Shown piece after piece: positions 15,072 through 29,947 of a DNA stretch of 52,430 nt. The stretch is from positions 1 to 52,430 of the forward strand of contig MGWC01000001.1 of assembly GCA_001800815.1 (NCBI GenBank), in the 5' to 3' direction. Numbering within the stretch: the stretch's first letter is position 1; every line of letters starts with the position of its first letter. The translations under genes and the position numbers were made by a program. The stretch is from Euryarchaeota archaeon RBG_19FT_COMBO_56_21. Lineage in GTDB: Archaea; Thermoplasmatota; Thermoplasmata; UBA10834. The notes beneath the pieces are model-generated. The model was not told the origin of the DNA. It was given only the letters and a program-made list of their open reading frames with translations, and searched no databases.

Positions 15072-16355
15072 TCATGAGATTTCTCTCTGCTGGAGCCTCT
15101 TCCTCTTGTCTATCGTTTTCTCAGTTCTGTAACTGAGGACAGTCGCAATGATAGTCGTGCCAAGAATGACAATGAGAGTGGTGTTGAGGAACAACGCCGT
15201 CAAGTCGATGCCCTGCGGCAAATCAGGCGCGCCTACGAGCAAGGTCGTGGCTCCCGTGGCCAGTACTGCAGCTGCCAATCCTCGAGGCATGAGAGCGAAC
15301 AACGCAGACGAATCCTCCTGAGGAAGCGTGCCTATTCTGCTCGTGGCAGAGGACGTGATCCACCGAACTGCCACGATTACACACAGCATCGCGATACCGA
15401 CAATGAGCTGCAGTCCATCTATGGTTCCGAATTCGAAAAGCAAGCCCATGTAGACGAAGAAGAACGTCCGTATGAAGAAGGTTATTTCTGCGTGGAAACG
15501 CTGAATCCTGTCATCGGAACCACCTGAGAGGTACACAGAAGTGATTTGTCTTTTCACGAAACCGCGGTTCCCTATCGACAGGCCAAAAGCCAAGGCTGCA
15601 ATCGCACCCGAGCTACCGACTAGTTCAACCGCGCCTGCAGTGAGGAACAGCACTGCGATTGTCAGCATGTAGGCAAGAGGTTGCCTTTGAAGGAGCTGAA
15701 GAGCATAGAGCCAGAGCACTCCAACCCCAAAGCCCATCAGCGCACCACCCAAGAAATCGAATGTAAGATCTCCCGCGAGGTTCACGGCGTTGAACTCGCC
15801 AACTCTCACAATCGTGAGCAGGGTAATGGCGGCGAGAATGACCAAGACATCTGTGAGGGAAGATTCAATGACAAGAGTCGATTTCGTAGAGGGCCTAATC
15901 CTCAGTCTACCCGCAATGGGAATCACTATCGCGCCACTCGTTCCTCCGACTATCGCACCCAGGCTCATGGCAATGTAGATGCTCTCGCCAATCGCAACGT
16001 AGACCACGGCTGCGACTGCCATCATTGTAAGCAGAAACGTGGCGGTTGCCATGAAGAGCGAGAGCCTCATCGACTCGAACACGGCCCTTATGTCCAATGT
16101 CAAGCCTCCATCGAAAAGGATCATGACGAGCGCCACGGAGAGGAAAAGATCCCTGTAATTGTTGAATTCCTCCAGAGTCTCAGTCGTAAGAAGGTGGAGC
16201 CTACCTCCAAGAATGGCCGGTCCGAGCAGAACTCCGACAAAGACCAGCAAGAGCACGTCAGGTACCTTGTACCTCTTGAATATCAAGTTGCCAAAGAATC
16301 CGATGAACACAACCGCACCGATGGCCAGAAACGCGACTATCGTGTTGTCATCCAT
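15072..16355 (-). CDS. Cation/H+ antiporter, CPA1 (NhaP-like)
   Basis: ILFDGG, GGTSGA, ES..TD, FF..G, PRGLAAA motifs, ~12-13 TM; start MDD at 16355 inferred. Confidence 0.88.
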   Translation of the reverse strand: MDDNTIVAFLAIGAVVFIGFFGNLIFKRYKVPDVLLLVFVGVLLGPAILGGRLHLLTTETLEEFNNYRDLFLSVALVMILFDGGLTLDIRAVFESMRLSLFMATATFLLTMMAVAAVVYVAIGESIYIAMSLGAIVGGTSGAIVIPIAGRLRIRPSTKSTLVIESSLTDVLVILAAITLLTIVRVGEFNAVNLAGDLTFDFLGGALMGFGVGVLWLYALQLLQRQPLAYMLTIAVLFLTAGAVELVGSSGAIAALAFGLSIGNRGFVKRQITSVYLSGGSDDRIQRFHAEITFFIRTFFFVYMGLLFEFGTIDGLQLIVGIAMLCVIVAVRWITSSATSRIGTLPQEDSSALFALMPRGLAAAVLATGATTLLVGAPDLPQGIDLTALFLNTTLIVILGTTIIATVLSYRTEKTIDKRKRLQQREIS

Positions 16356-16422
16356 CTTCCGCACCGTTCCTTTTCAACCCAATTAGTCAAGGGCAGCTTA
16401 GGGCTGACCACGCGATGTCCTC

Positions 16423-17715
16423 CTATCCGCGCAGTCGTTCAACCACAGCATCTTGTCCTGATCTCTGTCGGGACTCCACAGGACAGGCTTCTTCTGATGT
16501 GGGAGTCCCGCTCATAGCCCTCCTGAGAAGAAACGGCGTGAAAACAGCCGTTAGAACCCCCATCAATATGATCACAGAGTAGATCTCCTTGGAAATAATC
16601 CCGATTGTCAGGCCGTACAGTCCTATGATCATGGCCACCTCCAATCTTGGTGACATTCCGATGCCTATCGAGAGGGAGTCTCGTCTTGATATTCCAAGCA
16701 GGCGCGCAGGAATGCCACAACCCGCGACCTTCGAGAGCACTGCCACGACCGTCAGCAATGCTGCGAACAGCCAGGCGATTCCCGATATCTCCCCAAGGTC
16801 AACAAGGACCCCAAGCGACACGAAGAATATCGGTGCAAAGACCATCTCGAGGACTGAGAGCTGTCTCTTGTAGCTCGATCTGAATTGACAGCGTGCAAAG
16901 CTCGTCCCGGCTACAAAGGCTCCTATAATCGCGGAAATGCCAATAGCCTCTGATACGACAGAGTATACGAAGGCAATGCACAACGCCAACAGAAACCCGC
17001 TCTCCTCTATACCTCTCTCCAGGCCTCGCTTCTGGACAGCAGCAATTCCCTTCGCGATATACTTGGAGCCGATATAGGCTCCCAGGCCGACAAACGCTGC
17101 TGAAGCGAACACAAGAAGAAACAGTTCCCAAAGGTCGATGCCTGCTCCTGTTGCTGTTCCCTTAGATATCCCGAGCACAACCATACCGAGAACATCGTCG
17201 ACCACCGCAGCTCCTATGATGATCTTGGCGGTATCGGATCCTATGACCCTCATCTCGCGAAGAACCCCGGCAGTGATTGCCACGCTCGTTGCCACAAGCG
17301 CGGCGCCAACGAAAACTGATTGGGAGAACTTGTCGTAGCCGTTGCCGGGTTCAGGAAGCATCAGTTCTGCCAGAACGAAACCGCAGACCCACGGTACGAT
17401 CACACCACCAAGTGCAATGACCATCGAGCGCTTTGTGTAGATCTGCTTGATATCACATTCGAGGCCTATCATGAACAGAAGCAAGATGGCGCCAAGATTC
17501 GCCAATTGCTCCACCAGATTTCCAGTTACTGTTCCGCCAACCGATATCAAGCCCAAAACGCTCGGTCCAATCACGATACCAACTATCAGTTGGCCGAGGA
17601 TCTTCGGCTGCCTGAACCTTGCGAATAGGAAGCTTGAAGCTATGGCCACAGAGAGTAGAAGTGACAACTGCAGCCACAGATTGCCTACTATTGCGCTCCA
17701 GATGTCCTCGAGCAT
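16423..17715 (-). CDS. Cation/H+ antiporter, CPA2 (NapA/Kef-like)
   Basis: LLF.IGLE, ATSVAI, VVDDVL, GAFVAG, PIFFVS.G, PRLEV motifs. Confidence 0.9.
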   Translation of the reverse strand: MLEDIWSAIVGNLWLQLSLLLSVAIASSFLFARFRQPKILGQLIVGIVIGPSVLGLISVGGTVTGNLVEQLANLGAILLLFMIGLECDIKQIYTKRSMVIALGGVIVPWVCGFVLAELMLPEPGNGYDKFSQSVFVGAALVATSVAITAGVLREMRVIGSDTAKIIIGAAVVDDVLGMVVLGISKGTATGAGIDLWELFLLVFASAAFVGLGAYIGSKYIAKGIAAVQKRGLERGIEESGFLLALCIAFVYSVVSEAIGISAIIGAFVAGTSFARCQFRSSYKRQLSVLEMVFAPIFFVSLGVLVDLGEISGIAWLFAALLTVVAVLSKVAGCGIPARLLGISRRDSLSIGIGMSPRLEVAMIIGLYGLTIGIISKEIYSVIILMGVLTAVFTPFLLRRAMSGTPTSEEACPVESRQRSGQDAVVERLRG

Positions 17716-17791: not shown

Positions 17792-18571
17792 TCAGCCACG
17801 CCTTTGACGTCTCATTACTTCGCTTCCGAGGAGAAGGATCTCAAAGCCGTTGAGCTCCCCAATGAGTGTGTTATGCTCGTCAATGACAGGCAGGTCTTCA
17901 AGGCCATGTTTCATCATCTTCTCCAACGCAGTCAGCAGCCTGTCGTCCTCAGTGACCGTCACGGGCTTCACCATGTATTCCTCGACCGAGAAAGGGAGGG
18001 GGATTCGCTTGGACCGCGGCTGTTGCCGCCCTTTCTCGAAAAGCGATAGTGAACCCTGGATTGCAGCCAGCATCTCGGTGAGTCCAATCATTCCGATGAG
18101 CTTTCTCTTGTCGTCGACGACGTACGCGCTCCTTGTCCTTGGGTCGGCCAACACTCTGTCAACGACATCGTGAAGGCCCATGCCCTTCGTGACGACGATT
18201 GGATTGGCCACGACAAGCCTGTAAGCGTCCCTCACGAATCTGAATGAGAGCTCGTCGGCCATCCGTTCGAACATACCAACGCTCAATTCCCTCTCCACTA
18301 GGTCGAGCACGCTCTTTCCAACTGAGGTTAGACCGAACTTCTTCCATGTCTTCCGTCCAGGTTCCAACAGAGAAACGACCTTCCTCTCCTCCAGTTCCTT
18401 CAATGCCGTGCCGACGTTCTGAATCGAGCGATCTGTGTCCCGTGCGATTTCAGAGGCGCCGAGGTACTGGTTGTGCGCGAAACATCTGAGGGTGACAAGC
18501 CTTCGATCTGACATGATTATCCATCTTACAGTGTCCTTCATGCTCTGCTCCATGGTCTCACAATTCTCCAT
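17792..18571 (-). CDS. Winged-helix regulator fused to a CBS-domain pair
   Basis: N-terminal ASEIARDTDRSIQNV..ALKEL HTH with LTSVG wing; C-terminal VVDD..KLIG and LPVIDE..LIG CBS motifs; start uncertain. Confidence 0.85.
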   Translation of the reverse strand: MENCETMEQSMKDTVRWIIMSDRRLVTLRCFAHNQYLGASEIARDTDRSIQNVGTALKELEERKVVSLLEPGRKTWKKFGLTSVGKSVLDLVERELSVGMFERMADELSFRFVRDAYRLVVANPIVVTKGMGLHDVVDRVLADPRTRSAYVVDDKRKLIGMIGLTEMLAAIQGSLSLFEKGRQQPRSKRIPLPFSVEEYMVKPVTVTEDDRLLTALEKMMKHGLEDLPVIDEHNTLIGELNGFEILLLGSEVMRRQRRG

Positions 18572-18658
18572 CTCGAGTTTCTCTCAGGCACTCGGCTTGT
18601 TGTGATAATTGCGGACAAGGATTTAATAGTTATTCATCATTATTCACAGATAGTCACA

Positions 18659-18706
18659 GGGATGTGCGGGCTCTCAACCCCCAATTTTGGCCCCACTGCA
18701 CATCCC
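18659..18706 (+). promoter_or_regulatory. Stem-loop in the presumptive 5' leader of the opine dehydrogenase operon
   Basis: GGGATGTGC (18659-67) pairs with GCACATCCC (18698-706), inner GGGC/GCCC; TATA-like TTTAATA at 18622-28. Confidence 0.45.
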
Positions 18707-18730
18707 ACGACTTGCCCCGAGAGTGCTCCG

Positions 18731-19849
18731 ATGCCGTACAAGAAAAGAAAAGGAGAGAGGAAGCCAACTTTTGCAGTCCTGGGAGCAGGTCACGGAGGCT
18801 TGGCGATGGCAGGCCATCTAGCGCTTCTTGGCTTCCGCACACGGCTCTGGAACCGGTCGCGCGAAAGGACAGATCGTGTCTCCGACCGCGGAGGAATAGA
18901 GCTGGAGGGCGTGATAGAAGGTTTTGGGGAATTGGAGCTGGCCACGGACGATATTGGTGCCGCAATCGAAGGAGCGGATGTGATCATGGTGGTGGTGCCC
19001 GCAACGGGGCACAGAGACATCGCCAAGCTGTGCGCCCCGCATCTTAATCGCAACCAAGTCATAGTCCTGAATCCCGGAAGGACTTTCGGAGCGCTTGAGT
19101 TCCTTCAGGTGCTCAACAATGAGGAAGCTCCGGCCACTCCCACGTTGGCTGAGGCCCAGACTTTCATCTACGTATCTCGCCACACGGACTTCGCGCACGC
19201 GCGCATAATGCAGATCAAGAACTCCGTCCCTCTTGCGGCAATCCCCGCGCACAAGACGCCGGAAGTTCTGGACATCGTCCGAAAGGCCCTTCCCGAATTC
19301 GTAGCAGCAACAAACGTCCTCGAGACGAGCCTCGACAACATAGGAGCCATCTTCCATCCGGCTCTCACTATCCTCAATGCGGCTAGAATAGAATCTACTC
19401 ACGGCGACTTCGAGTACTATCTTGAGGGTGTCTCCCCTTCGACGGCGAGGATCGTCGAAGCTGCGGACATGGAGCGCGTTGCATTGGGGACAGCTCTTGG
19501 CGTGCACCTCCACACCGCAAGGGAATGGCTCTATCTGGCCTATTCTTCTGCTGGTAAGACGCTTTATGATGCCACCCAGGGCACCCCTGGCTACAAGGGG
19601 GTAAGAGCTCCATCGACACTGACTCACAGGTACATCCTCGAGGATGTTCCAATGAGCCTCGTGCCGATGGTCTCAGTTGGCAAGTTGCTGGGGGTGAAGA
19701 CCCCCACGCTCAACGCACTCATTCACATGGCTTCTCTTATTCACGCTCGCGATTTCTGGGCCGAGGGCAGGACTGTCCAGAAGCTAGGTCTTGCTGGGAT
19801 GTCAGTTGAGGATATCCGAATGCTGGCCGTCAGAGGAGTGTCAAAATGA
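18731..19849 (+). CDS. NAD(P)-dependent opine (octopine/nopaline) dehydrogenase family protein
   Basis: Rossmann GAGHGG, LNPGRTFG, N.GAIFHP, D.ER.A, HRY..EDVP, G..TP motifs; start ATG 18731 inferred. Confidence 0.9.
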   Translation: MPYKKRKGERKPTFAVLGAGHGGLAMAGHLALLGFRTRLWNRSRERTDRVSDRGGIELEGVIEGFGELELATDDIGAAIEGADVIMVVVPATGHRDIAKLCAPHLNRNQVIVLNPGRTFGALEFLQVLNNEEAPATPTLAEAQTFIYVSRHTDFAHARIMQIKNSVPLAAIPAHKTPEVLDIVRKALPEFVAATNVLETSLDNIGAIFHPALTILNAARIESTHGDFEYYLEGVSPSTARIVEAADMERVALGTALGVHLHTAREWLYLAYSSAGKTLYDATQGTPGYKGVRAPSTLTHRYILEDVPMSLVPMVSVGKLLGVKTPTLNALIHMASLIHARDFWAEGRTVQKLGLAGMSVEDIRMLAVRGVSK

Positions 19850-21507
19850 GAATCCTGGCAGCTTCCATAGGCAATTGCGTCCACACCGCTGGCATTCAGG
19901 CCTTCCTGGAAATAGCCCGTACTCTCGGACACGATACTGTATTCCTCGGTCCAGCGGTCTCCGTAAAGAGGCTCGCCGAAGCCATTGTCGAGCACAAGCC
20001 GGATGCTGTTGCCGTGAGTTACAGGTTGACCCCCGAAAGCGCAAAGGTGATTTTCGACGAGCTGCAATCTGAGATCACCAGGAGCCCAGACTTAAAGAAA
20101 AGCAGGAAGTTCTTCTTCGGTGGGACGCCTCCAGTAGCGGCCCTCGCCGTCAAGACAGGCATATTCGATACATGCTTCGACGGCAGCGAGCAGGAGAAAG
20201 CCGTTGTGGCACTTCTCCAAGGGACACCTCTGGTAAAGAGTGCATCCGAGTACGCCTCGGACCTTGTTACCAGGGTTCAGAGCTCTCAACCGCTGCCCCT
20301 TATTCGACATCATTTCGGGCTTCCATCGATGAAGGACACGATTGAAGGCGCCAGGAAGATCGCTGAGAGCGGCCTGTTGGATATCCTCTCGATAGCGCCG
20401 GATCAGAGCGCACAAGAATCCTTTTTCAGACCTCGGGAGATGGACTCGCGCCTCGATGGTGCCGGAGGCGTCCCTCTGAGAAGCCCCGCCGACCTCCAAG
20501 CACTATATGAGGCGACAAGAACAGGCAGCTTCCCCCTCCTCAGGTGCTATAGTGGCACAAGAGACCTCATCAGATGGGCCGAGATGATGAAGGACACCAT
20601 CAACACAGCATGGGGTGCGGTCCCTCTCACCTGGTACAGCGAGCTCGACGGCCGCTCCAAAAGAACTCTGAATGAAGCCATTGCAGAAAACCAGCAGGCC
20701 ATGAAATGGTATGCTGAGCACGGGATTCCCGTGGAGGTCAACGAATCCCATCAATGGGCTCTGAGGCGTTCAGGCGACGTCGTGGAACTCGCGACAGCAT
20801 ACCTCGCAGCGTACAACGCGAAAGCTCTCGGCGTGAGAGACTACGTTTGTCAGTTCATGTTCGACACTCCAAGAGGCATCTCGCCCGCAATGGACATCGC
20901 GAAGATGCTCGCCAAGCTCGAGCTCGTAGAGTCCATCAAGAACGGCGAGTTCAGGGTAATCAGGATGGTCAGATCTGGTCTGACCTCATTCTCCTCGTCG
21001 GCCAATGTCGCAAAGGGGCAGCTGGCTGCTTCCGTGTACGCCGCCATGACCCTGAAACCTCACATCGTCCACGTTGTGGGCTACAGTGAGGGGGATCATG
21101 TGTCCACGGCAGAAGAGGTGATCGAAAGCTGCGAGATCGCCCAGGGAGCAATCATGAAGGCTCTTCTCGGTGGGGTGAGACCGGAGACCGATCCAAAGGT
21201 CATGGTCAGAAAGGCAAACCTCATCGAGGAGACTCGGTACCTGCTTGATGCGATCAAACGCTTGAAGAGAGCCAACTCACATGATCCGCTCACATCCCCC
21301 GAGACGATAGCCGAGGCGATCAGGGAAGGATTGCTCGATGCATCGGATCTTCGCGGGAGCGGAGTGGCCCGGGGGAGAATAGTGACATCAATCGTCGATG
21401 GAGCCTATGTGGCGGTCGATTCCAACACTGGCAAGCCGATCACGGAGAAGGAGAGAATCCAGGAACTTGCAGTCTGCGAACACGACCTTGATCTCGCCGA
21501 GATTTGA
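19846..21507 (+). CDS. Cobalamin-binding protein: N-terminal B12 domain fused to a glutamate-mutase-E-like TIM barrel
   Basis: GNCVHTAG (DxHxxG variant), FLG, SY, GG B12-domain motifs; ~420-aa C-terminal alpha/beta domain; no CxxxCxxC; ATGA overlap with upstream gene. Confidence 0.75.
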   Translation: MRILAASIGNCVHTAGIQAFLEIARTLGHDTVFLGPAVSVKRLAEAIVEHKPDAVAVSYRLTPESAKVIFDELQSEITRSPDLKKSRKFFFGGTPPVAALAVKTGIFDTCFDGSEQEKAVVALLQGTPLVKSASEYASDLVTRVQSSQPLPLIRHHFGLPSMKDTIEGARKIAESGLLDILSIAPDQSAQESFFRPREMDSRLDGAGGVPLRSPADLQALYEATRTGSFPLLRCYSGTRDLIRWAEMMKDTINTAWGAVPLTWYSELDGRSKRTLNEAIAENQQAMKWYAEHGIPVEVNESHQWALRRSGDVVELATAYLAAYNAKALGVRDYVCQFMFDTPRGISPAMDIAKMLAKLELVESIKNGEFRVIRMVRSGLTSFSSSANVAKGQLAASVYAAMTLKPHIVHVVGYSEGDHVSTAEEVIESCEIAQGAIMKALLGGVRPETDPKVMVRKANLIEETRYLLDAIKRLKRANSHDPLTSPETIAEAIREGLLDASDLRGSGVARGRIVTSIVDGAYVAVDSNTGKPITEKERIQELAVCEHDLDLAEI

Positions 21508-21525
21508 TTCATTCGGTGAATGGAA

Positions 21526-22995
21526 ATGGAAGGGATCGCAGGCACATTCGGAATGAGAGACAAACACCTCGTGAGAATGATGCTGGAGAAGCTCGAACAC
21601 AGGGGACCCGACGCATCAGCAATCTATGCTGACGACGCTCTCGTTCTCGGGGCCAGGAGGTCGAGAAGAAGCCCCATCGAAAAGGCCACAGCGATTGCAC
21701 AGGAGGATGGGGTTGCTGTCGCATGCGATTCATACATCTTCAACAAAGAGCGGTTGCGAAAGACGATTGCCCCGAGCTGCGACGGGAGTGCCTCAGACGC
21801 GCAGCTCGTGCTCAAAATGTATAGGACCATAGGCGCTTCCGTCTTCCGCTACATCGATGGGGCATATGCCATAGTCATCGTTGACTGTGGCAAGACCCTT
21901 GTCGCAAGGGATACCTACGGTCTCAAACCGCTTTACTTCTCGGGGGACATGAGAAGGGGCATATACTCTTCCGAAATCAAGTCCCAGCAACTCGCAGAAG
22001 AGCGATTCATTCCCTTCCCGCCTGGCGAGATGCTTGTCTCCGGGGAGGGTTTCAGAAGAATCGTGAGGCAAGAAATCCCTTGGACCAAAGATCTCAATCC
22101 CAAGCGTCCCGCAGATAGAGTGCGTCAGCTCATAATGCAGAGTGTGTTGGGCTGTGTCGACAATTCGAGCGGATTCAACGTGTTACTCAGCGGAGGTGTC
22201 GACAGCAGCGTTATTGCTGCAGCTGCTGCTGAGACTGCATTGAGCACACAGAGTGTCTGCGTAGGGACGGAAGATAGCGAGGACCTCAAGATGGCTCGAT
22301 TGGTCGCAGATCACCTCGGGACCAGACACAAAGAGCGTGTCTATGATGTCGAAGACATGCTCAAAGTCCTCAGCGACGCAATATACTATGGGGAGACTTT
22401 CGACTACCCTCTCGTGAGAAGTTGCATCCCCAATTACATTGCTACGCATGTCTTCTCGGACAGGCACAGGATCACTCTCTGCGGCGAGGGAGGAGACGAG
22501 GTATTCGCAGGATACGACTTCCTATTTGGCGTCAAGAAGGACGAGGCGCTGAGATTGGAGAGGGTCGCCCTGCTCAGGGATGGTCACATGACCGGATTCC
22601 AGAGAGTCGATCGGATGACTGCGTCTGCCTCTCTGGATGGAAGAATGCCCATGATGAGCAATCAGGTTGTGGATTATGGTCTTCGGCTGGGTAGGAAGGC
22701 ATTGCTCGGATCCAAAGTCGAGAAGAGCAAACTTGTCCTTCGCAAAGCCTTCGCCGATCTCTTGCCGAAGCAGGTTACATGGAGAAAGAAGAGGAGGTTC
22801 AGCGATGGCGCTGGCTCCATCAGCTCTCTTGTCGGGTATTCAGAGAAGCTCATATCTGACAAGGAGTTCGAGAGAGAACGGGGACTACTGCCAAGAATCA
22901 GGACGAAGGAGGAGCTGTTGTACTACAGGGTCTTTCAGCGTCACTTCCCATCGGAGAGCGCACTAGCCTCAGTTGGATTCACGCCACGCCCATGA
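21526..22995 (+). CDS. Asparagine synthetase B-like ATP-dependent amide ligase lacking the N-terminal nucleophile Cys
   Basis: MEGIAG start, HRGPD, RD.YG.KPLY, SEIK, PP-loop LSGGVDSS, GEGGDEVFAGY, K.VLR, WRKK; GGTGA RBS at 21515 (alternative start 21520). Confidence 0.88.
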   Translation: MEGIAGTFGMRDKHLVRMMLEKLEHRGPDASAIYADDALVLGARRSRRSPIEKATAIAQEDGVAVACDSYIFNKERLRKTIAPSCDGSASDAQLVLKMYRTIGASVFRYIDGAYAIVIVDCGKTLVARDTYGLKPLYFSGDMRRGIYSSEIKSQQLAEERFIPFPPGEMLVSGEGFRRIVRQEIPWTKDLNPKRPADRVRQLIMQSVLGCVDNSSGFNVLLSGGVDSSVIAAAAAETALSTQSVCVGTEDSEDLKMARLVADHLGTRHKERVYDVEDMLKVLSDAIYYGETFDYPLVRSCIPNYIATHVFSDRHRITLCGEGGDEVFAGYDFLFGVKKDEALRLERVALLRDGHMTGFQRVDRMTASASLDGRMPMMSNQVVDYGLRLGRKALLGSKVEKSKLVLRKAFADLLPKQVTWRKKRRFSDGAGSISSLVGYSEKLISDKEFERERGLLPRIRTKEELLYYRVFQRHFPSESALASVGFTPRP

Positions 22996-23273
22996 CTACG
23001 CGAGGGAAGTCACGAATGAGAGACCTAACCCCATGTTTCCACCACGCAATCTCTCTCTGATAGTCTGAAACCATTTTCCTATGGGCAAATAGACTGTGTC
23101 CAAACCCGTTCATTTTGTACCCGTAAGTATAGCATCCAGCTTTAATCACCGGCAGATTCCGGGCCATAATCCGGGATTGAGAAAAAAGTTAAAGGGTTTT
23201 GAGAACTGGCCCTGCATTGTCTCACAGGAATTGAAATCCGAGATAGAATATCTGGCTCGCAACAGGTGCAGGC

Positions 23274-23319: not shown

Positions 23320-24954
23320 TCATTTGTCGTAGAGTCGGCAGGCGACGAAATGACCGTTTCCAACATCGTCCATCTGCGGTTCCTCCACCGCTCCGAGCTT
23401 GACCGCCAATTCAAGCTTTGGTCCCTTTGTTCGTTTGATGGCGACCCGTCGCACTGCGAGCGCGATTGGGTTCTTCTGCTCCTTCATGAATTTGAGACGG
23501 GTCTCCAGCTCGGCGACCGCCTTATCGAGATTAGCCTCAGGCCCGAGCACTTTGAAAACGACGTGTCTCCCTCTGGGTTTGATCGACAGAATCATGTTGT
23601 GAACTCTGGAAGCAGGGTCCACGTCCAGCACTCTTTCCATCAACATCGCCGCTTCCTGAGCCACTTTCCTAGCTGATATCTTCCGTCGGGGCGGCTTCTT
23701 ACCTTTATCCGCGCTCCCCGCCGCCGTCCCAGGCAATGACAACTTGTCGCAGGACACGACGACCTCTCGATCTACTAAGAACATGTCAATTGCGACCACA
23801 GCGTCCAATAATGAAGACTCCTTCTTGCGTTCGGCGAAATAGGCCCCGAGCCATCTCTTCACCAAATCAACGTCTTCCCCGGACCGCAGGTCGACATAGG
23901 CTGCGAAGCCATCGGATCTGAGCCCCACGACGTGGTTCGACAGGATGTGCGTCGGGTTTGTGATCTTCGCGACTTCTAGCAGGTGGGCAACAAGGTCCCT
24001 CCCCTCCCAGCCGCACTTGTCAAAGGCTACGGAGCACCTCGGATGGAATCTGCACCCCTTCGGCGGGTCAATGGGGCTGGGGACTTCGCCTTCAATGCCC
24101 CTCCTGTCCTTCCTCTTGAGAGGGTCGGGGATGGGAATTGACGAAATGAGAGCCTTCGTGTAGGGGTGCAGAGGGTTGCCCATGAACTCGCGAGTTGGAG
24201 CCAGCTCGACTATCTTCCCCAGATACATGACTGCGATCCTATCGCTCATATGCTCTATGACGGACAGATCGTGAGAGATGAAAAGGAAGCTTAGTCCCAG
24301 TTTAGACTGGAGACGCTTGAGAAGGTTCAGAGCCTGAGCCTGAACCGACACGTCCAACGCCGAAGTAGGCTCGTCCAGAACTATGAAGTCAGGATCGAGC
24401 GCAAGTGCTCTCGCAAGCGCTATCCTTTGCTTCTGACCCCCGCTGAACTCGTGTGGCAGCCTGGAAAGATGGTCATGGGAGAGGCCCACTTGCTCGATGA
24501 GCTCGTGGATCTTCTCCCTCTTTATGAACTTCGAGTCACCGATGCCCTTGGGTGGCCCATGAATCGCAAATCCCTCTCCAATTATCCTCTCCACCGTCAT
24601 CCGCGGGTCGAGGCTGGAATATGGATCCTGGAAGACGATCTGCATCCTCTTCCTGAAGCCACGGACTGCGGACTGCGGGATCTCCGTGATATCCTTGCCC
24701 TGGAAGATGATCCTCCCACCTGTCGGCTCGGCGAGCCTCAGTATGGTGCGTCCGACCGTGGTTTTTCCGCATCCCGACTCACCGACTAGACCCAGGGTCT
24801 CACCCCTGAATACCGACAGATCTACGCCATCGACTGCGTGGACATGTCCGACCACAGTGCTGAAAACGCCCTTCTTCACCGGGAAGAGTTTCTCCAGACC
24901 AATGGTCTGGACGATTGGTTGGCTGCCGTTAGCCCGGTCTCCGCTAACGGACAT
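23320..24954 (-). CDS. Oligopeptide/dipeptide ABC transporter ATPase (OppF/DppF) with ~200-aa C-terminal insertion
   Basis: [37 protein letters not shown]...HFVAC. Confidence 0.92.
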
Positions 24955-26221
24955 TTGGGCCCTCCTTTCCAGTCCACAAATGGCATGAAACGAAGTGCCC
25001 TGGAGAGATCTCCACCCGCCGCGGCATATCCTCTCCGCAGACTTCCGTGGCCTTCTCGCATCTCTCTACGAACGCGCAGCCTTGGAACGGACGCATCAGG
25101 TTTGGCACCGTCCCTCTTATCACTGACAGCTCATCCTTTCTCTCGCCCAGTTTAGGGAATGCCGCGAGCAGTCCAGCCGTGTAAGGGTGTCTCGGGTTGG
25201 CGAATAGCTCGAAGGTCTCCGCCTCCTCCACGATCCGACCTGCGTACATCACGCATATCCGGTCGCACACCTCCGCCACGACTCCCAAGTTGTGCGTGAT
25301 CAACATCATCGAGCTGCCAGTCGTGCGCATGAGGTCTCTCAACAGGTTGAGTATCTGGGCCTGGATCGTGACATCGAGCGCGGTCGTCGGTTCGTCCGCG
25401 ATCAGAAGTGATGGGGAGCACGATAGCGCGAGCGCGATCATGACGCGTTGCTTCATGCCGCCGCTCAGCTCGTGGGGATACTGCTTCATGACATTGACCG
25501 GCGCGGCAATCCTCACCAGCTTCAGCACCTCCTCTATCTTCTTGTCGAGTACAGCTCGATCATAGATGCCCTGGTGCAAGGAGATGACCTCGCCGAGTTG
25601 ATAGGCGACCGTGAAGACTGGATCTAGGGCGGTGGCAGGGTCTTGGAATATCATGGATATGCTCTTGCCTCTGATGGATCTCATCTGGTCATCGGTTCTT
25701 GTGAGCAAATCGAACGAGAAAAGCGCAGCAGCTCTCCCGACTTTGTCGGACGCAGGCATCGTCTTGGCATTCTGTGCGAGATAGTACCTTGTGACTCCGG
25801 TCGGAACTCTGTCCGGCGGAACGATCTTATCGATCTGCGCTGGGGTCAACTTCTTGGCCTTCTTCTTGCGACCAGTGTCCCTGTAATCGTAGAGCGCGAC
25901 AAGCTTCTTCTTCTCCACCAGAGACGATCTCCTGTACCATTCCTGGGCCTCTATCTCCAGCTGCATCCTTCGCTGTCGGACATCCTGAGGCTCCATGAAG
26001 AAGATGTTGCCAGCTGTAATCTTTCCGGGGCCCGGAACGAGCCTCAATATGGAGAAGGCGGTCATGCTCTTCCCGCAGCCCGTTTCTCCAACAATCCCCA
26101 CGGATTCCTTTTCGTAGACTGTGAAATCAATGCCGTCGAGAGCAGTCACCACCCCCTCGTGCAGGAAGAATTGAGTCCGTAGCCCCACAATCTCGAGCAG
26201 GGGCTTCCTACCGGGCATCAT
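24944..26221 (-). CDS. Oligopeptide/dipeptide ABC transporter ATPase (OppD/DppD) with ~90-aa insertion
   Basis: [35 protein letters not shown]; start 26221 overlaps upstream stop. Confidence 0.92.
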
Positions 26222-27168
26222 CTCCTCAGCCCCTTCATACGCGGGTCGAGCACGTCCCTCAGACCGTCCCCTAGCAGGTTGAACCCCAGAATGGTCAGCA
26301 GCAGCACGAGTCCAGTGAAGGTCGCCATCCATGGTGCCTCCTCCAGGTACGGGATGCCCCTGTACAGCATGTAGCCCCAGCTTGGCGTCGGAGGCTGCGT
26401 GCCCACTCCAAGGAAGCTGAGGCTGCTCTCAATTGTGATCGCATCCGCGACGCCGATGGACGCCCACACGATCAGAGGAGCCAGACAGTTCGGCAGGACG
26501 TGTGTGAACATGATCCTGATATTCTTCGCGCCCAGAGCCCTGCTAGCCTCGACGAACAGCCGCTCCCGAACCGCAAGCGCCTGACCGCGCATGAGCCTCG
26601 CGAACCCGGCCCAGTAGGATATGGATATCGCCAATATGACGTTGTTCAGGCTTGGTCCTAGCGCTGCGGCGAATGCAAGTGCCAGCAGGAACGCGGGGAA
26701 TGTCCAGAACAAGTCAATCGTGCTCGCGATGATGTAATCGACTTTGCCGCCGAAATAGCCCGCCGTAAGCCCCAGCAACACCCCGATCACCAGGGAGAAA
26801 AAAACTGCCAGCGTCGCCACCAACAACGAAACTCTCGCGCCCCAGATAACCCGACTGAATACATCTCGACCTAGCTCGTCAGTCCCAAAGATGTGTCCGT
26901 CTCCCTTGGATACGTTGTACCCGAAGAACCTGAACCAGTGCGGAGGCAAAGTCTGGTCCTCCGGATGGATCTCGCTCGGGGTCGGGTCGGCAATTGGCAG
27001 GACGGGGGCAAACACGGCGAGCGCGACCATCACGACAATGACAGACAAACCAATGACGACCATCTTGTTCCTGCTGCCCCGCTGGATCATATCGGCTATG
27101 GTCTCCCTCGCGCCGCCGGCCATCTTCCAGCCGAGAAGCCTGTCGTTCAGACCCTTCCTCAGCCTCAT
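26218..27168 (-). CDS. Oligopeptide ABC permease (OppC/DppC)
   Basis: FGTDELGRD, FVEASRALGA EAA loop, LSFLG.G..PPTPSWG. Confidence 0.95.
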   Translation of the reverse strand: MRLRKGLNDRLLGWKMAGGARETIADMIQRGSRNKMVVIGLSVIVVMVALAVFAPVLPIADPTPSEIHPEDQTLPPHWFRFFGYNVSKGDGHIFGTDELGRDVFSRVIWGARVSLLVATLAVFFSLVIGVLLGLTAGYFGGKVDYIIASTIDLFWTFPAFLLALAFAAALGPSLNNVILAISISYWAGFARLMRGQALAVRERLFVEASRALGAKNIRIMFTHVLPNCLAPLIVWASIGVADAITIESSLSFLGVGTQPPTPSWGYMLYRGIPYLEEAPWMATFTGLVLLLTILGFNLLGDGLRDVLDPRMKGLRR

Positions 27169-28106
27169 CCCAGCCTCACCCTTGGGTCCACGAACGCGTA
27201 GAGTATGTCAGCAACCAGGTTGCCGAGTACGACGAACATCGCCAGTACGAGTATGCACCCCTGAACAGTCGGATAGTCGTAGTTCGTGATGGAGTTGGTC
27301 ACGAGCAGACCAAGCCCAGGCCATGAGAAGACGGTCTCGACGACGACTGCGCCCGCGACGAACCAACCGATGTCGAGGCCAATGACCGTGATCACAGGGA
27401 GCATCGCGTTCTTGAGAGCATGCTTGAATATCACTTCGCTCTCCGGGAGTCCTCTAGACCTGAGCTGAGTGATGTAGTCCTGTCTCTGCACCTCAAGCAT
27501 GCTCGATCTCATCATGCGGGTCGTGAGCGCCGCATTGCCAAGACCTAAAGTCATCGCGGGCAGGATGATGCTCTTGAAACCCCCGACCGTTCCTTCGATT
27601 GGAAGCCATCCTAAGTACACCGCGAACAGCAGCATTAGCAGGATGCCGAGCCAAAACGAGGGCATGGCGTATGCAACGAGCGTGAAGACCATCACACTCC
27701 TGTCCTTCCAGGAGTTCTGCTTCAGCGCCGAGTATACCCCAAGAGGGATGCCCAGTGAATATGAAATAGTCAAGCCGATGGCCATGAGCTCGAGTGTCTT
27801 CGGAAGCCTCTGGATGATGAGGTCGCTTACGTCGAGATTGAGTGTCTGACGACTGACCGATTGGCCGAGATCGCCCTGCGCCAGGCGGTAGAGGAATTTG
27901 CCGTACTGGACGATGAACGGCTGGTCAAACCCATACTTCTCTCTGAGCTTCTGAATATCATCGGGGGACGCGTGCGGAGGCAGGATGTTGACGATGGGAT
28001 CTCCGGGGGTCAGGTACAGCATAAGAAAGACGATGAATGTCGCAAGCAGAATTACAGGAATGGCGAGAAGAATCTTCCTGATCACGTAAGAGATTAGATC
28101 CGCCAT
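27165..28106 (-). CDS. Oligopeptide ABC permease (OppB/DppB)
   Basis: PGDP, GDLG.S, P.FWLG, HALKNA, E.VF.WPGLG, DPRV; start MADL at 28106 inferred. Confidence 0.95.
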   Translation of the reverse strand: MADLISYVIRKILLAIPVILLATFIVFLMLYLTPGDPIVNILPPHASPDDIQKLREKYGFDQPFIVQYGKFLYRLAQGDLGQSVSRQTLNLDVSDLIIQRLPKTLELMAIGLTISYSLGIPLGVYSALKQNSWKDRSVMVFTLVAYAMPSFWLGILLMLLFAVYLGWLPIEGTVGGFKSIILPAMTLGLGNAALTTRMMRSSMLEVQRQDYITQLRSRGLPESEVIFKHALKNAMLPVITVIGLDIGWFVAGAVVVETVFSWPGLGLLVTNSITNYDYPTVQGCILVLAMFVVLGNLVADILYAFVDPRVRLG

Positions 28107-28222
28107 GGATTTCTTCCCCTTACAGCCCCCATCCGCCGCCGTCCATAGATGCTTCTGCTCCGCGTGTTTTGGTCGGGTTCCGCATATGAAATGAAATGGT
28201 AAAGGGTTTTCTAGTTTTTCCA

Positions 28223-29947
28223 CTACTTCACTATGTCAACGTCCAGGATGTTAATAGGCTGCTCCTGGCCGAGCGGGTGCACATACCAGCCTGTCACATA
28301 GTTGTGTATCGCGAAGATCTGGTACCAGAATATGATCGGTGCCCAGGCCCCCTGCGTCAATAGCCTGATGTGTCCAGCTGTGGCGTTGTCAGAGAAATCC
28401 TTCTCCGTCTCCGCGTAGGTCCAGTTGGTGACATAGCCGTCGAAAACGTCGTCCATGTACCATCCGGTGTTCGAACCTCCAGCGGCCCATGTGCCGAAGT
28501 GCCAGTCGAGGATCTCCGCTCTCGGCCACGAGTACCAGAACAAGATGGCTTCCTGTTCTCCATCAGCCGCCTTGGCCCTCAGAGTTGTCTCCGCGTATTG
28601 CGCGAGATCCACATGGACTCCAACCGCCTGGAACTGGGTCTGCAGAATCTCTCCCATCGAAACGTCCTCGCCCTTGTTTGTAGTCCATAGATCCAGCGTC
28701 AGCTCAGCTCCCGCGGCATTCTCTAGCCATGCGTCGCTGTCTCTGTTGGTCCAGCCGGCCGCCGCGAACAGTGTGCTCGCCTTGGCGGGGTCATATGAAT
28801 AGTTGTATATCGCTGGAACCTTCGTCGACTCAGGCTCGATTGGCGACAGGTAGTTGACACCCTCCTCACCAATGCCGTGCCAAACCGTCTGCAGGATCTG
28901 CGTTCTGTTGATGGCGTAGCCGAACGCTTTTCTGAGGTCCGCATTCGTCCACGGAGTCTTGTTGCAGTTGAACTCTACGTGATATGTCCCCTGTCCGCGG
29001 CCCGAAATCACCGTCATCTCGGTGTTGGCCTCGTATGTCGGAACCTTGTTCGGTGGCACCTGCTGCAGGATATCGATCGCCCCGCTCTCAAAGCCGGCGA
29101 ATCTTGCTGCCTGGTCCGGTATCACCCTGTAGATGATCTTGTCGATCTTTGCGGGCCCCTTGTTTGTGTACCAGGAGGCTCCCCAGTTGTAGTCCTTGTT
29201 CTTCACAAGTGTGACATGATCGCCTGCGACCCACTCCTTGAGCTTGAACGGACCAGTCCCGATGACTTTGTGTCCGGCCGTTCCGTAGTTCTCAAGTCCG
29301 TCCGATTCAAGCGCGTCAGGACCCATCATCGAACCGTACAAGTGCGACAGGTTGAAGATCAACGCCACATCAACCCAAGTAAGGTTGAGCGTCATGTGGT
29401 AGTCATCCCTGCACCATATGCCCGCGTCCGGCCATCCGGTCTTGTTCTCGCAGCCATATATGGCCCAGAACTCGTACTGCACCCAGCTATCATCTTGGGC
29501 GTAGTAGTCGATGATCCTCCTGACCGCATCTGAGTCAAACGCCAATCCGTCATGGAACTTCACACCCTCCTTGAGCGTGATGTTGAATGTGGCGTTGTAC
29601 GGGTAACCCGTGCCTCTCATGTTCTTGAGCTCCCAAGACTCTGCAAGTCCTGGTACGTAGGCACCGGTCAGGTCCCTGGCGATCAAGGTCTCGTATATCA
29701 TGCCCGGAGGCCCATACATCGCACTCGTTTTCGCAGGGTCCATCGTCTCAACATCGGAGCTCATAGCGATAACGAGGACCTTACCCTCATCCGCATTGAA
29801 CAGACCTGCGGCCCATGCGCCGGCTACTGCGGCTATCACCAGTATGACCACGATTACGACTGCCCACAACATCTTGCTTTTCGGTCGAGCTGGCGAGCCG
29901 GCAGGTTGCGCTATCTCACTCTCTGGTTGCTTCTCAGAACTCCCCAC
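28223..29947 (-). CDS. ABC substrate-binding protein family 5 (OppA/DppA-like), N-terminal membrane anchor
   Basis: TMDP, YETL, PGLAESWE, GVKFHDG, GTGPFK, LRKAF.YAINR motifs. Confidence 0.93.
   Translation of the reverse strand: MGSSEKQPESEIAQPAGSPARPKSKMLWAVVIVVILVIAAVAGAWAAGLFNADEGKVLVIAMSSDVETMDPAKTSAMYGPPGMIYETLIARDLTGAYVPGLAESWELKNMRGTGYPYNATFNITLKEGVKFHDGLAFDSDAVRRIIDYYAQDDSWVQYEFWAIYGCENKTGWPDAGIWCRDDYHMTLNLTWVDVALIFNLSHLYGSMMGPDALESDGLENYGTAGHKVIGTGPFKLKEWVAGDHVTLVKNKDYNWGASWYTNKGPAKIDKIIYRVIPDQAARFAGFESGAIDILQQVPPNKVPTYEANTEMTVISGRGQGTYHVEFNCNKTPWTNADLRKAFGYAINRTQILQTVWHGIGEEGVNYLSPIEPESTKVPAIYNYSYDPAKASTLFAAAGWTNRDSDAWLENAAGAELTLDLWTTNKGEDVSMGEILQTQFQAVGVHVDLAQYAETTLRAKAADGEQEAILFWYSWPRAEILDWHFGTWAAGGSNTGWYMDDVFDGYVTNWTYAETEKDFSDNATAGHIRLLTQGAWAPIIFWYQIFAIHNYVTGWYVHPLGQEQPINILDVDIVK

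Follow-up and report, generated by a model that had tools for sequence, protein, structure and literature searches.

A putative AsnB-fold amide synthetase without glutaminase, encoded in a widespread opine dehydrogenase-B12 gene cassette

The DNA stretch analyzed here (the window; 52,430 nt, contig MGWC01000001.1) belongs to the Thermoplasmata genome Euryarchaeota archaeon RBG_19FT_COMBO_56_21 (GCA_001800815.1) and encodes an AsnB-like amide ligase of 489 aa (P0001; 21526..22995 including the stop codon, + strand), which was recognized by its Asn_synthase domain, a match to the E. coli AsnB structure 1ct9 and a structural model. P0001 has lost the glutaminase site of AsnB, keeps the adenylating site, and is encoded directly downstream of genes for an opine dehydrogenase (ODH) and a B12 enzyme. 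From its sequence features, P0001 is assigned to a type of AsnB-fold amide synthetase without glutaminase that is predicted to work in a widespread pathway. By analogy with characterized relatives, we give roughly an even chance to the proposal that it uses ammonia to amidate an acidic amino acid carrying an N-(1-carboxyethyl) group, at an aspartate-like side-chain carboxylate.

Active-site state and family placement of the AsnB-like protein

Residues of P0001 were mapped by alignment to E. coli AsnB (1ct9), with AsnB residues numbered from Cys1; the site features that follow are direct sequence readings in which chance plays no part. The N-terminal Ntn-type domain (approximately residues 1-190; 21526..22095, +; GATase_7, 9.7e-14) has E2 in place of Cys1, encoded by GAA (21529-21531), a codon that differs from TGT/TGC at all three positions, and Met is not known to be removed ahead of Glu or Gln. 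In the same domain HERL of E. coli AsnB reads ARRS, NGEIYN reads DSYIFN (N74D, G75S and E76Y, at D68-S69-Y70), the loop at residues 44-58 is variable, and D98 is retained as D91. The C-terminal ATP-pyrophosphatase (synthetase) domain (22096..22992, +; Asn_synthase PF00733, 2.1e-47, 163 bits against a cut-off of 21) carries LLSGGVDSS at 220-228 (SGGVDSS at 222-228) and CGEGGDEVFAGY at 319-330, which includes GEGGDE at 320-325 and the equivalents of E348, D351, E352 and Y357; R360, K402 and K422 correspond to R387, K429 and K449. On translation and alignment we thus found every motif reported in a first-pass annotation of this DNA (MEGIAG, the GAA codon, ARRS, DSYIFN, SGGVDSS, GEGGDE...GY and a C-terminal Lys, which is K422), and its description of a dead glutaminase domain next to an intact synthetase domain stands, with Cys1 replaced and the synthetase residues kept. 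P0001 also has Pro-Leu-Val-Arg at the Thr-Thr-x-Arg motif of true AsnB, with T321, T322 and D384 changed to Pro, Leu and Gly, and the alignment stops at E. coli AsnB residue 514, the C-terminal tail with C523 being absent.

The open reading frame (ORF) spans 21520..22995 (+) and is closed upstream by an in-frame TGA at 21517-21519, so the start is limited to ATG 21520 or ATG 21526. Because a GGTGA Shine-Dalgarno-like motif, read directly from the sequence (21515..21519, +), lies 6 nt before ATG 21526, and because orthologues begin M-[E/Q]-G-I-A-G as P0001 begins MEGIAG, ATG 21526 was taken as the start; the alternative at ATG 21520 is unlikely.

Orthologues of P0001 share the loss of Cys1. A word-index search listed 120 matches, among which P0002-P0098 were 47-90% identical to P0001 and those past some fragments were <=40% identical; the 84 of P0001-P0098 with at least 480 residues were used as the orthologue set, and 14 shorter ones were dropped. 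Cys was found at position 2 in 0/84, the commonest residues being E (45), Q (30), H (4) and L (2), while a separate tally agreed on E, H and L and counted 29 Q and one S. The Cys loss is therefore a fixed state, and not that of a decaying copy whose close orthologues keep Cys1, the outcome that the first-pass annotation had named as fatal to its view. The remainder of the glutamine site is also altered across the set: the N74 column is D in 84/84, the G75 column S in 75/84 and the E76 column Y in 70/84, the R49 column is variable, I52 and V53 are deleted, and the D98 column stays D or E. In the synthetase domain, the PP-loop Ser, Gly, Gly and Ser are each present in 84/84 and the PP-loop Asp in 83/84; D279, E352, R387 and R447 are retained in 84/84, E348, D351, Y357 and K449 in 83/84, and K429 in 82/84, and the D384 column is Gly in 80/84. 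Mean pairwise identity among the orthologues was 0.585 for the C-terminal domain, 0.495 for the N-terminal domain and only 0.24 for the former glutamine loop at 44-58.

An exhaustive search of 50%-identity representatives returned one full-length cluster for the orthologue group, with the next matches at <=37% identity; many of these ~490-aa relatives were also Cys-less, mostly with Ser or Ala at position 2. We built a FastTree phylogeny of 168 rows (25 of the 84 orthologues picked at random, a paralogue from the same genome, 141 relatives and E. coli AsnB as outgroup), in which the Thermoplasmata group (support 100) was nested in an all-Cys-less clade of 92 rows (support 96). A further 15 Cys-less rows were scattered among Cys-bearing ones, and 13 changes of Cys state were needed overall. 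An IQ-TREE phylogeny (quick mode, LG+G4) of 78 rows, including 44 AsnB-like proteins from loci with the ODH-B12 pair, placed all 51 Cys-less rows in one clade (SH-aLRT 98), with the Cys-bearing forms from such loci just outside. P0001, directly downstream of its ODH and B12 genes, fell inside the Cys-less clade in both trees, whose deep branching should be taken cautiously as both were made without careful search or mixture model. The N74D change tracks the Cys loss, occurring in 68/81 Cys-less relatives versus 1/60 Cys-bearing ones.

The paralogue is a Cys-less AsnB-like protein of 490 aa on contig C18 (C18:1425-2897, +), which starts MQGLAGCYGE, is ~50% identical to P0001 and stands outside any cassette. 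Its PP-loop reads DGGINSS, with Ser and Asp lost, and it has Glu at the K449 equivalent; its closest relatives (P0074, P0079 and P0085) retain SGGIDSS and the Lys. To judge from these motifs, the paralogue may be a pseudoenzyme or a decaying copy. No second full-length copy was seen in other genomes of the order (49 genomes).

By sequence, the best solved relative of P0001 is E. coli AsnB (1ct9, E 3.9e-52), followed by human ASNS, beta-lactam synthetase (2.9e-23) and CarA (4.1e-13). An AlphaFold model built with 33 orthologues was confident in both domains (pLDDT 91, pTM 0.91) and superposed on AsnB with a TM-score of 0.88, on ASNS with 0.87, on beta-lactam synthetase with 0.74, on CarA with 0.73 and on TsnB9 with 0.70. 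Among the features of AsnB (EC 6.3.5.4), P0001 has the PP-loop SGGxDS and the equivalents of the catalytic E348, D351 and K449. It lacks Cys1, the glutamine-binding network (given as R49, L50, I52, N74, G75, E76 and D98; PMC5775275, PMC6748925), of which D98 alone persists, as D or E, and the Thr-Thr-x-Arg motif with the Cys523 tail, and it scores below the cut-offs of the NCBIfam AsnB models (NF006949, 329 vs 499 bits; TIGR01536, 219 vs 267). Models of lasso-peptide and macrolactam cyclases also failed their cut-offs for P0001 (NF033535, 102 vs 525; NF033561, 44 vs 300), and its operon neighbours, an ODH, a B12 enzyme and a regulator, are unlike the precursor-peptide and B-protein setting of those cyclases.

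Set beside E. coli AsnB (1ct9) and human ASNS (6gq3), P0001 shares the two-domain fold, the PP-loop, the equivalents of E348, D351, E352, Y357, R387, K429 and K449 and, probably, the chemistry in which an adenylate is formed and then attacked by ammonia. It differs from both in the missing Cys1, in N74D, G75S and E76Y, in a shortened and variable R49-V53 loop, in Pro-Leu for Thr-Thr and Gly for D384, in the loss of a C-terminal tail of ~40 residues, and in being an operon member where AsnB is a housekeeping gene. Beta-lactam synthetase (1jgt) and CarA (1q15) resemble P0001 in having the AsnB fold without the glutaminase nucleophile and with the adenylating site kept; the similarity is lower, however, and P0001 has Glu at the E348 position as AsnB does, lacks a beta-lactam gene context and has, in its cassette, sister forms that retain a live glutaminase domain. 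The substrates of beta-lactam synthetase and CarA are N-substituted amino acids (secondary amines) bearing a beta-carboxylate, and their catalytic set is Tyr-Glu-Lys, with Tyr where AsnB has Glu. That the AsnB family handles carboxylates beyond free aspartate is illustrated by the AsnB-type enzymes with which B. subtilis and L. monocytogenes amidate the meso-diaminopimelate of their peptidoglycan; these, compared here by their published description only, are described as amidotransferases, unlike P0001 (PMC5485061, PMC8554201).

The opine dehydrogenase-B12 cassette

The ODH gene of the window (18731..19849, +) encodes a protein of the CENDH/ArODH type, with an Octopine_DH match of 5.6e-48 and a match to 1bg6, N-(1-D-carboxyethyl)-L-norvaline dehydrogenase, at E 8.3e-82. 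Its ORF extends from GTG 18602, and since the 1bg6 match begins at residue 55, the start is probably Met44 (nt 18731), 43 codons past that GTG, with the stretch 18602-18730 not translated. The start of the next gene overlaps the ODH stop codon (ATGA); this gene (19846..21507, +) is predicted to encode a single-chain B12 enzyme of 553 aa (P0122), with an N-terminal B12-binding domain (PF02310, 7.8e-14) and a model-derived TIM barrel of the glutamate-mutase-E type. Pfam and PDB sequence profiles gave no match on residues 140-553 of the B12 protein. In its model (pLDDT 90) the best fold match was glutamate mutase subunit E (1cb7_B, E 2.7e-16, TMt 0.66), followed by ornithine and lysine aminomutases and methylmalonyl-CoA mutase. 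Compared with glutamate mutase GlmS/GlmE (1cb7, 6h9e; 439 aligned columns), the window protein is a single chain whose B12 domain is N-terminal, with 15% identity, and the Pfam model Met_asp_mut_E misses it. A radical-SAM identity of the B12 protein was ruled out by the lack of CxxxCxxC and by the glutamate mutase fold.

The link between the AsnB-like gene and the opine dehydrogenase is real. Other Thermoplasmata loci were found by an alignment-based search, as a single-protein locus search gave no relative, and in them the B12 gene precedes the AsnB-like gene in 14/14 informative loci and ODH precedes the B12 gene in 12/12. A scan of one-per-species genomes with the B12 alignment yielded at least 592 confirmed relatives; 80 loci were kept, and 78 new ones from lineages other than the Thermoplasmata set were examined. 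The lineages carrying the cassette included Bacteroidales, Aminicenantes, Clostridia, Thermotogae, Omnitrophota, Thorarchaeota, Bathyarchaeia, Methanofastidiosa and others. ODH adjoins the B12 gene in 73/78 of these loci and an AsnB-like gene is nearby in 45/78; clustering of neighbouring ORFs gave corresponding counts of 78 for the B12 protein, 70 for ODH, 43 for the AsnB-like protein and 10 for a MarC-type membrane protein. Short ORFs made up the other recurrent clusters; judged by coordinates, several run antisense to the B12 gene or to ODH. Forty-two AsnB-like genes from the 78 loci were examined for their Cys state, of which 34 were Cys-less and 8 had Cys1.

The AsnB-like gene is a variable part of the cassette. 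It was present in 16/49 genomes of the window's order and in 2/12 of the high-quality ones, which marks it as an accessory trait. Five genomes with the ODH-B12 pair and no AsnB-like gene beside it had no cassette-type copy elsewhere, so the AsnB-like gene appears to be an add-on step; one of the five has a canonical Cys-bearing AsnB (579 codons) and the rest gave weak partial matches. In 30 loci without an AsnB-like gene, the flanks held a Ddl-like ATP-grasp ligase (3), AsnA (2), an AsnC/Lrp regulator (4), a CobA/BtuR corrinoid adenosyltransferase (4) and MscS-type channels (3). In the Bacteroidales loci L050, L062, L072 and L091 the AsnC/Lrp-type regulator gene immediately follows the B12 gene but is read from the opposite strand, and in L050 and L062 asnA was ~1 kb upstream of ODH. 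The adenosyltransferase genes that flank the pair support adenosylcobalamin (AdoCbl) as the cofactor of the B12 enzyme; the window's own genome has a corrinoid adenosyltransferase gene on contig C61.

The same gene pair has been recorded before. Zhang et al. (2009) predicted, from 11 genomes, a B12 family whose genes were in every case next to one for octopine/nopaline dehydrogenase and often had asparagine synthase or D-Ala-D-Ala ligase nearby (PMC2667541). The H. orenii genome paper noted the pair Hore_09740/09750, called its role unknown and named carriers among Halothermothrix, Thermosipho, Petrotoga and Thermoanaerobacter (PMC2626281). In the portions of these two accounts that we could consult, neither assigned a function, and neither mentioned riboswitches, ODH specificity residues, a glutamate-mutase fold or the loss of Cys1 (PMC2667541, PMC2626281). 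Our literature search, which had subscription journals outside its reach, found no function for the ODH-B12 cassette and no description of the Cys-less clade.

Nucleophile, acid substrate and proposed pathway

Evidence on the nucleophile came from the eight AsnB-like proteins of the cassette that keep Cys1 (L082, L087, L092, L093, L096, L100, L105 and L107), all encoded directly downstream of the B12 gene. The four that were aligned (L082, L096, L100 and L105) have the full glutaminase set RL[SA]IxD, GGxQP, NGEIYN and SDTE, and they share with the Cys-less cassette forms ESFDAxLVRS, where E. coli AsnB has ETYDVTTIRA, and LQR, where it has CAR. Because the same operon slot and the same acceptor-site signature occur with or without a glutaminase, transfer of ammonia is the simplest chemistry common to both. 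These sequence patterns favour ammonia as the nucleophile, drawn from glutamine in few forms and from solution in many. The first-pass annotation had listed ammonia, an amine or an intramolecular nucleophile. Ammonia is the candidate that gained, through the 8/42 homologues with a complete glutaminase; the other two did not, and the fold is nearer AsnB than beta-lactam synthetase. Moreover, about 45 residues of the old glutamine site (R49-D98) are deleted in 10/15 Cys-less rows from outside Thermoplasmata, so that no new catalytic role is evident for this pocket. The deletion carriers are forms of ~445 aa from bacteria and some archaea (L040, L041, L044, L052, L060, L063, L071, L074, L075 and L085), which retain the M-x-GIAGI N-terminus and the HRG motif.

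The acid substrate was approached from the synthetase site and from the specificity residues of the ODH. P0001 keeps the equivalents of three pocket residues and of K466 as E321, D324, E325 and K422. In the literature on AsnB-family structures, K466 sits on phosphate (PMC6748925), and the Thr-Thr pair, an Arg and Cys523 are listed as involved in aspartate and ATP binding (PMC5775275). Since T321, T322 and D384 are replaced by Pro, Leu and Gly and the C523 tail is absent, the acceptor site of P0001 suggests an aspartate-like pocket with room at the amino end, and an acid that is Asp-like but N-substituted or branched.

The ODH signature points in a similar direction. Telek et al. (2024; PMC10787698) reported that hot-spring ODHs related to ArODH prefer L-Asp and L-Glu with pyruvate and NADPH. 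In that study, reciprocal exchange of two residues, Ala to Arg at ArODH position 111 and Asn to Gly at position 198, made the enzymes change over from L-Phe to L-Asp or the reverse. The window ODH has R160 and G248 at ArODH positions 111 and 198, N84 and S86 at D34 and D36, and the catalytic His252. Across 70 cassette ODHs, Arg occurs in 70/70, Gly in 64/70 (Ala in 6) and the catalytic His in 70/70. Arg at 111, Gly at 198 and N, S or T at D34/D36 are shared with mODH-45, -47, -48, -49, -55 and -582, a grouping made by signature positions alone; the sections of that paper available to us are silent on gene context, with no mention of an operon or of B12 (PMC10787698). The acid is most likely a product of the two upstream enzymes; that it is the opine, as the first-pass annotation suggested, is plausible and fits the Asp/Glu signature of the ODH, the D384G change and the optional last-gene position of the AsnB-like gene.

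In the pathway model each enzyme does what its nearest characterized relative does. The ODH would join pyruvate to L-Asp or L-Glu, yielding an N-(1-carboxyethyl) amino acid, and the AdoCbl mutase would rearrange a glutamate-type skeleton to a 3-methylaspartate-type one, exposing a beta-carboxylate that an AsnB-type site could handle. The C-terminal PP-loop domain of P0001 would then adenylate the side-chain carboxylate of this aspartate-like acid, and the acyl-adenylate would react with free ammonia, not derived from glutamine, releasing AMP and PPi and leaving a carboxamide. The N-terminal domain would persist as a folded, non-catalytic module. Amidation would be an optional last tailoring that takes one negative charge off the product, possibly a stress-related solute.

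We also put forward a fuller proposal, offered tentatively as possible rather than probable. In it the cassette would yield a previously undescribed opine in amide form, such as N-(1-carboxyethyl)-asparagine or its 3-methyl counterpart, N-(1-carboxyethyl)-3-methylasparagine; the route would include a novel AdoCbl mutase reaction whose substrate is an acidic amino acid with a substituted nitrogen. The Cys-less enzyme would act as the switch from an anionic to a less charged product, and this compound, its production turned on by Na+/Li+ and c-di-AMP riboswitches, might as a solute protect hundreds of anaerobic bacteria and archaea from stress.

Regulation, surroundings and rival explanations

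An Rfam scan over 46 cassette loci found riboswitches before a cassette gene in 4/46. An nhaA-I riboswitch, a class that we take to respond to Li+/Na+, lies directly upstream of the B12 gene in L045. Two further copies occur in L051 (Desantisbacteria), one ahead of ODH-B12 (L051:5766-5819) and the other (L051:10459-10511) ahead of the AsnB-like gene, which follows 2 kb later, and by this arrangement the parts of the split cassette appear to be co-regulated. Riboswitches for c-di-AMP stand upstream of AsnB-like-ODH-B12 in L085 (115.8 bits) and of Ddl-like-ODH-B12 in L102 (98.6 bits), and in L105 an nhaA-I riboswitch is downstream of the AsnB-like gene. No other riboswitch class was found in the 46 loci, the remaining Rfam matches being tRNAs.

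In the window, the cassette is preceded by a divergent regulator (17792..18571, -) with a winged-helix domain of the HVO_A0114 type and CBS domains, identified with Pfam; a regulator of this kind is beside the operon in 8/11 Thermoplasmata loci with enough upstream sequence. A diadenylate cyclase domain, which bears on the CBS regulator as a c-di-AMP sensor, was not found in the genome (84.6% complete). Adjoining the regulator are two tandem Na+/H+ exchangers of 430 aa each (15072..17715, -; domain search); L009, and in part L001, has a homologue at the corresponding place, whereas most other Thermoplasmata loci do not. Taken together, the riboswitches, the MscS channels and these two exchangers point weakly to ion or osmotic stress. 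A complete ABC importer of the Opp/Dpp/Nik type (two ATPases, two permeases and a family-5 binding protein; 23320..29947, -) converges on the operon. A staphylopine-like metallophore reading based on this importer was rejected, as the transporter matches only 2/15 Thermoplasmata and 9/78 other loci, at ~30% identity. A promoter and terminator scan of the window, which does not cover archaeal promoters, gave the same counts as shuffled sequences, and Rfam matched tRNA only. No RNA run was listed as containing 18600-23000.

The main alternative to amidation of an opine is that P0001 is an ammonia-dependent asparagine synthetase (L-Asp + NH3 + ATP to L-Asn), providing either the cell's own supply or Asn for an asparagine opine formed by the ODH. 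This is in keeping with the retained equivalents of E348, D351, E352, R387 and K449 and with the reported ability of AsnB synthetase domains to use ammonia (PMC3854871), and the AsnC/Lrp regulator beside the pair in 4/30 loci speaks for it as well. The genome encodes asparaginyl-tRNA synthetase (AsnRS), while GatB and bacterial AsnA were not found in it at 84.6% completeness; with AsnRS and without GatB, the cell needs free Asn. AsnRS matches on contigs C43 and C51 scored almost alike and may represent a single gene that was assembled twice. However, an archaeal AsnA-type synthetase (AS-AR) is already encoded on contig C10 (~68400-69340, +; 1nnh 4.4e-64, 3p8t 2e-60), so a housekeeping source of Asn exists without the AsnB-like gene; this AS-AR is an AsnRS-like core without the anticodon domain. 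Furthermore, P0001 departs from true AsnB at the Thr-Thr pair and D384 and has no C523 tail, the NCBIfam AsnB scores are far under the cut-offs, the gene is patchy even within its order, and it is tied to the operon wherever its context is visible. On these grounds a housekeeping AsnB was rejected as the leading explanation, and plain Asn synthesis is considered unlikely.

A further rival, also quite unlikely, has P0001 form a peptide-like bond, joining the adenylated carboxylate to some amine rather than to ammonia. The amine could be an amino acid, a polyamine or the partner of the opine itself, and the enzyme would resemble the ATP-grasp ligases that stand in for it in some cassettes. A Ddl-like ligase does flank the pair in L098, L102 and L108, its gene in L102 stands behind the same type of c-di-AMP riboswitch as the AsnB-like gene of L085, and the N-terminal domain, in which D68, N73 and D/E91 are invariant, could offer a binding site for an amine. 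Yet the eight cassette-linked homologues with a full glutaminase domain could deliver only ammonia, the deletion in 10/15 Cys-less rows removes most of the putative pocket, and no donor-making gene recurs among the neighbours. Ring closure as in beta-lactam or carbapenam synthetase is very unlikely; here the adenylated beta-carboxylate of the N-(1-carboxyethyl)-aspartate-type opine would be attacked by the secondary amine of the same molecule, giving a beta-lactam (or a gamma-lactam from a glutamate skeleton). Both solved Cys-less AsnB homologues act on secondary amines with a beta-carboxylate, the ODH product from L-Asp has the matching geometry, and beta-lactam synthetase and CarA are significant sequence and fold matches of P0001. 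Nevertheless, the fold is nearer AsnB, E321 is an AsnB-type Glu where those enzymes have the catalytic Tyr, cassette forms with a working glutaminase domain would be pointless for cyclization, and no other beta-lactam pathway gene is nearby. We give almost no credence to P0001 as a non-catalytic pseudoenzyme or scaffold for the mutase and dehydrogenase: the paralogue on C18, with its PP-loop Ser and Asp and its K449 equivalent gone, demonstrates that such decay occurs in the family, but all tested ATP-site residues are kept in 82-84 of the 84 (the operon copy plus orthologues).

Some observations weigh against the preferred reading of P0001 as an ammonia-dependent opine amidase of stress-related function. 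The D-Ala-D-Ala-ligase-type ATP-grasp enzyme that takes the flanking place in 3/30 loci without an AsnB-like gene belongs to a type of ligase that usually joins an amino-acid amine, not ammonia, and AsnA, found near the ODH-B12 pair in 2/30 loci, would suit plain Asn synthesis. The Cys-bearing cassette forms lie outside the Cys-less clade and could act differently. N74D accompanies the Cys loss without explanation, and the N-terminal domain of the Thermoplasmata proteins is under constraint (mean identity 0.50; D68 and N73 invariant), which argues against a pure relic because a relic would not need constraint. As to stress, only 4/46 loci have a riboswitch preceding the cassette, and the sequencing runs containing this DNA are labelled soil, sediment and permafrost metagenomes, with no pointer to a salty habitat.

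These results define a large clade of the AsnB fold in which glutamine use has been lost once and the adenylating site kept, with glutamine-using sisters in the same operon slot; clade and sisters together form a natural experiment on amidotransferases turning into ammonia ligases. The Cys-less clade is tied to the ODH-B12 pair, flagged in 2009 and now found in at least 592 species genomes by the B12-alignment scan. The specificity residues of the ODH provide candidate substrates (L-Asp or L-Glu with pyruvate), and the pathway is therefore open to direct in vitro study. It may hold a new B12 rearrangement and an undescribed stress-linked metabolite.

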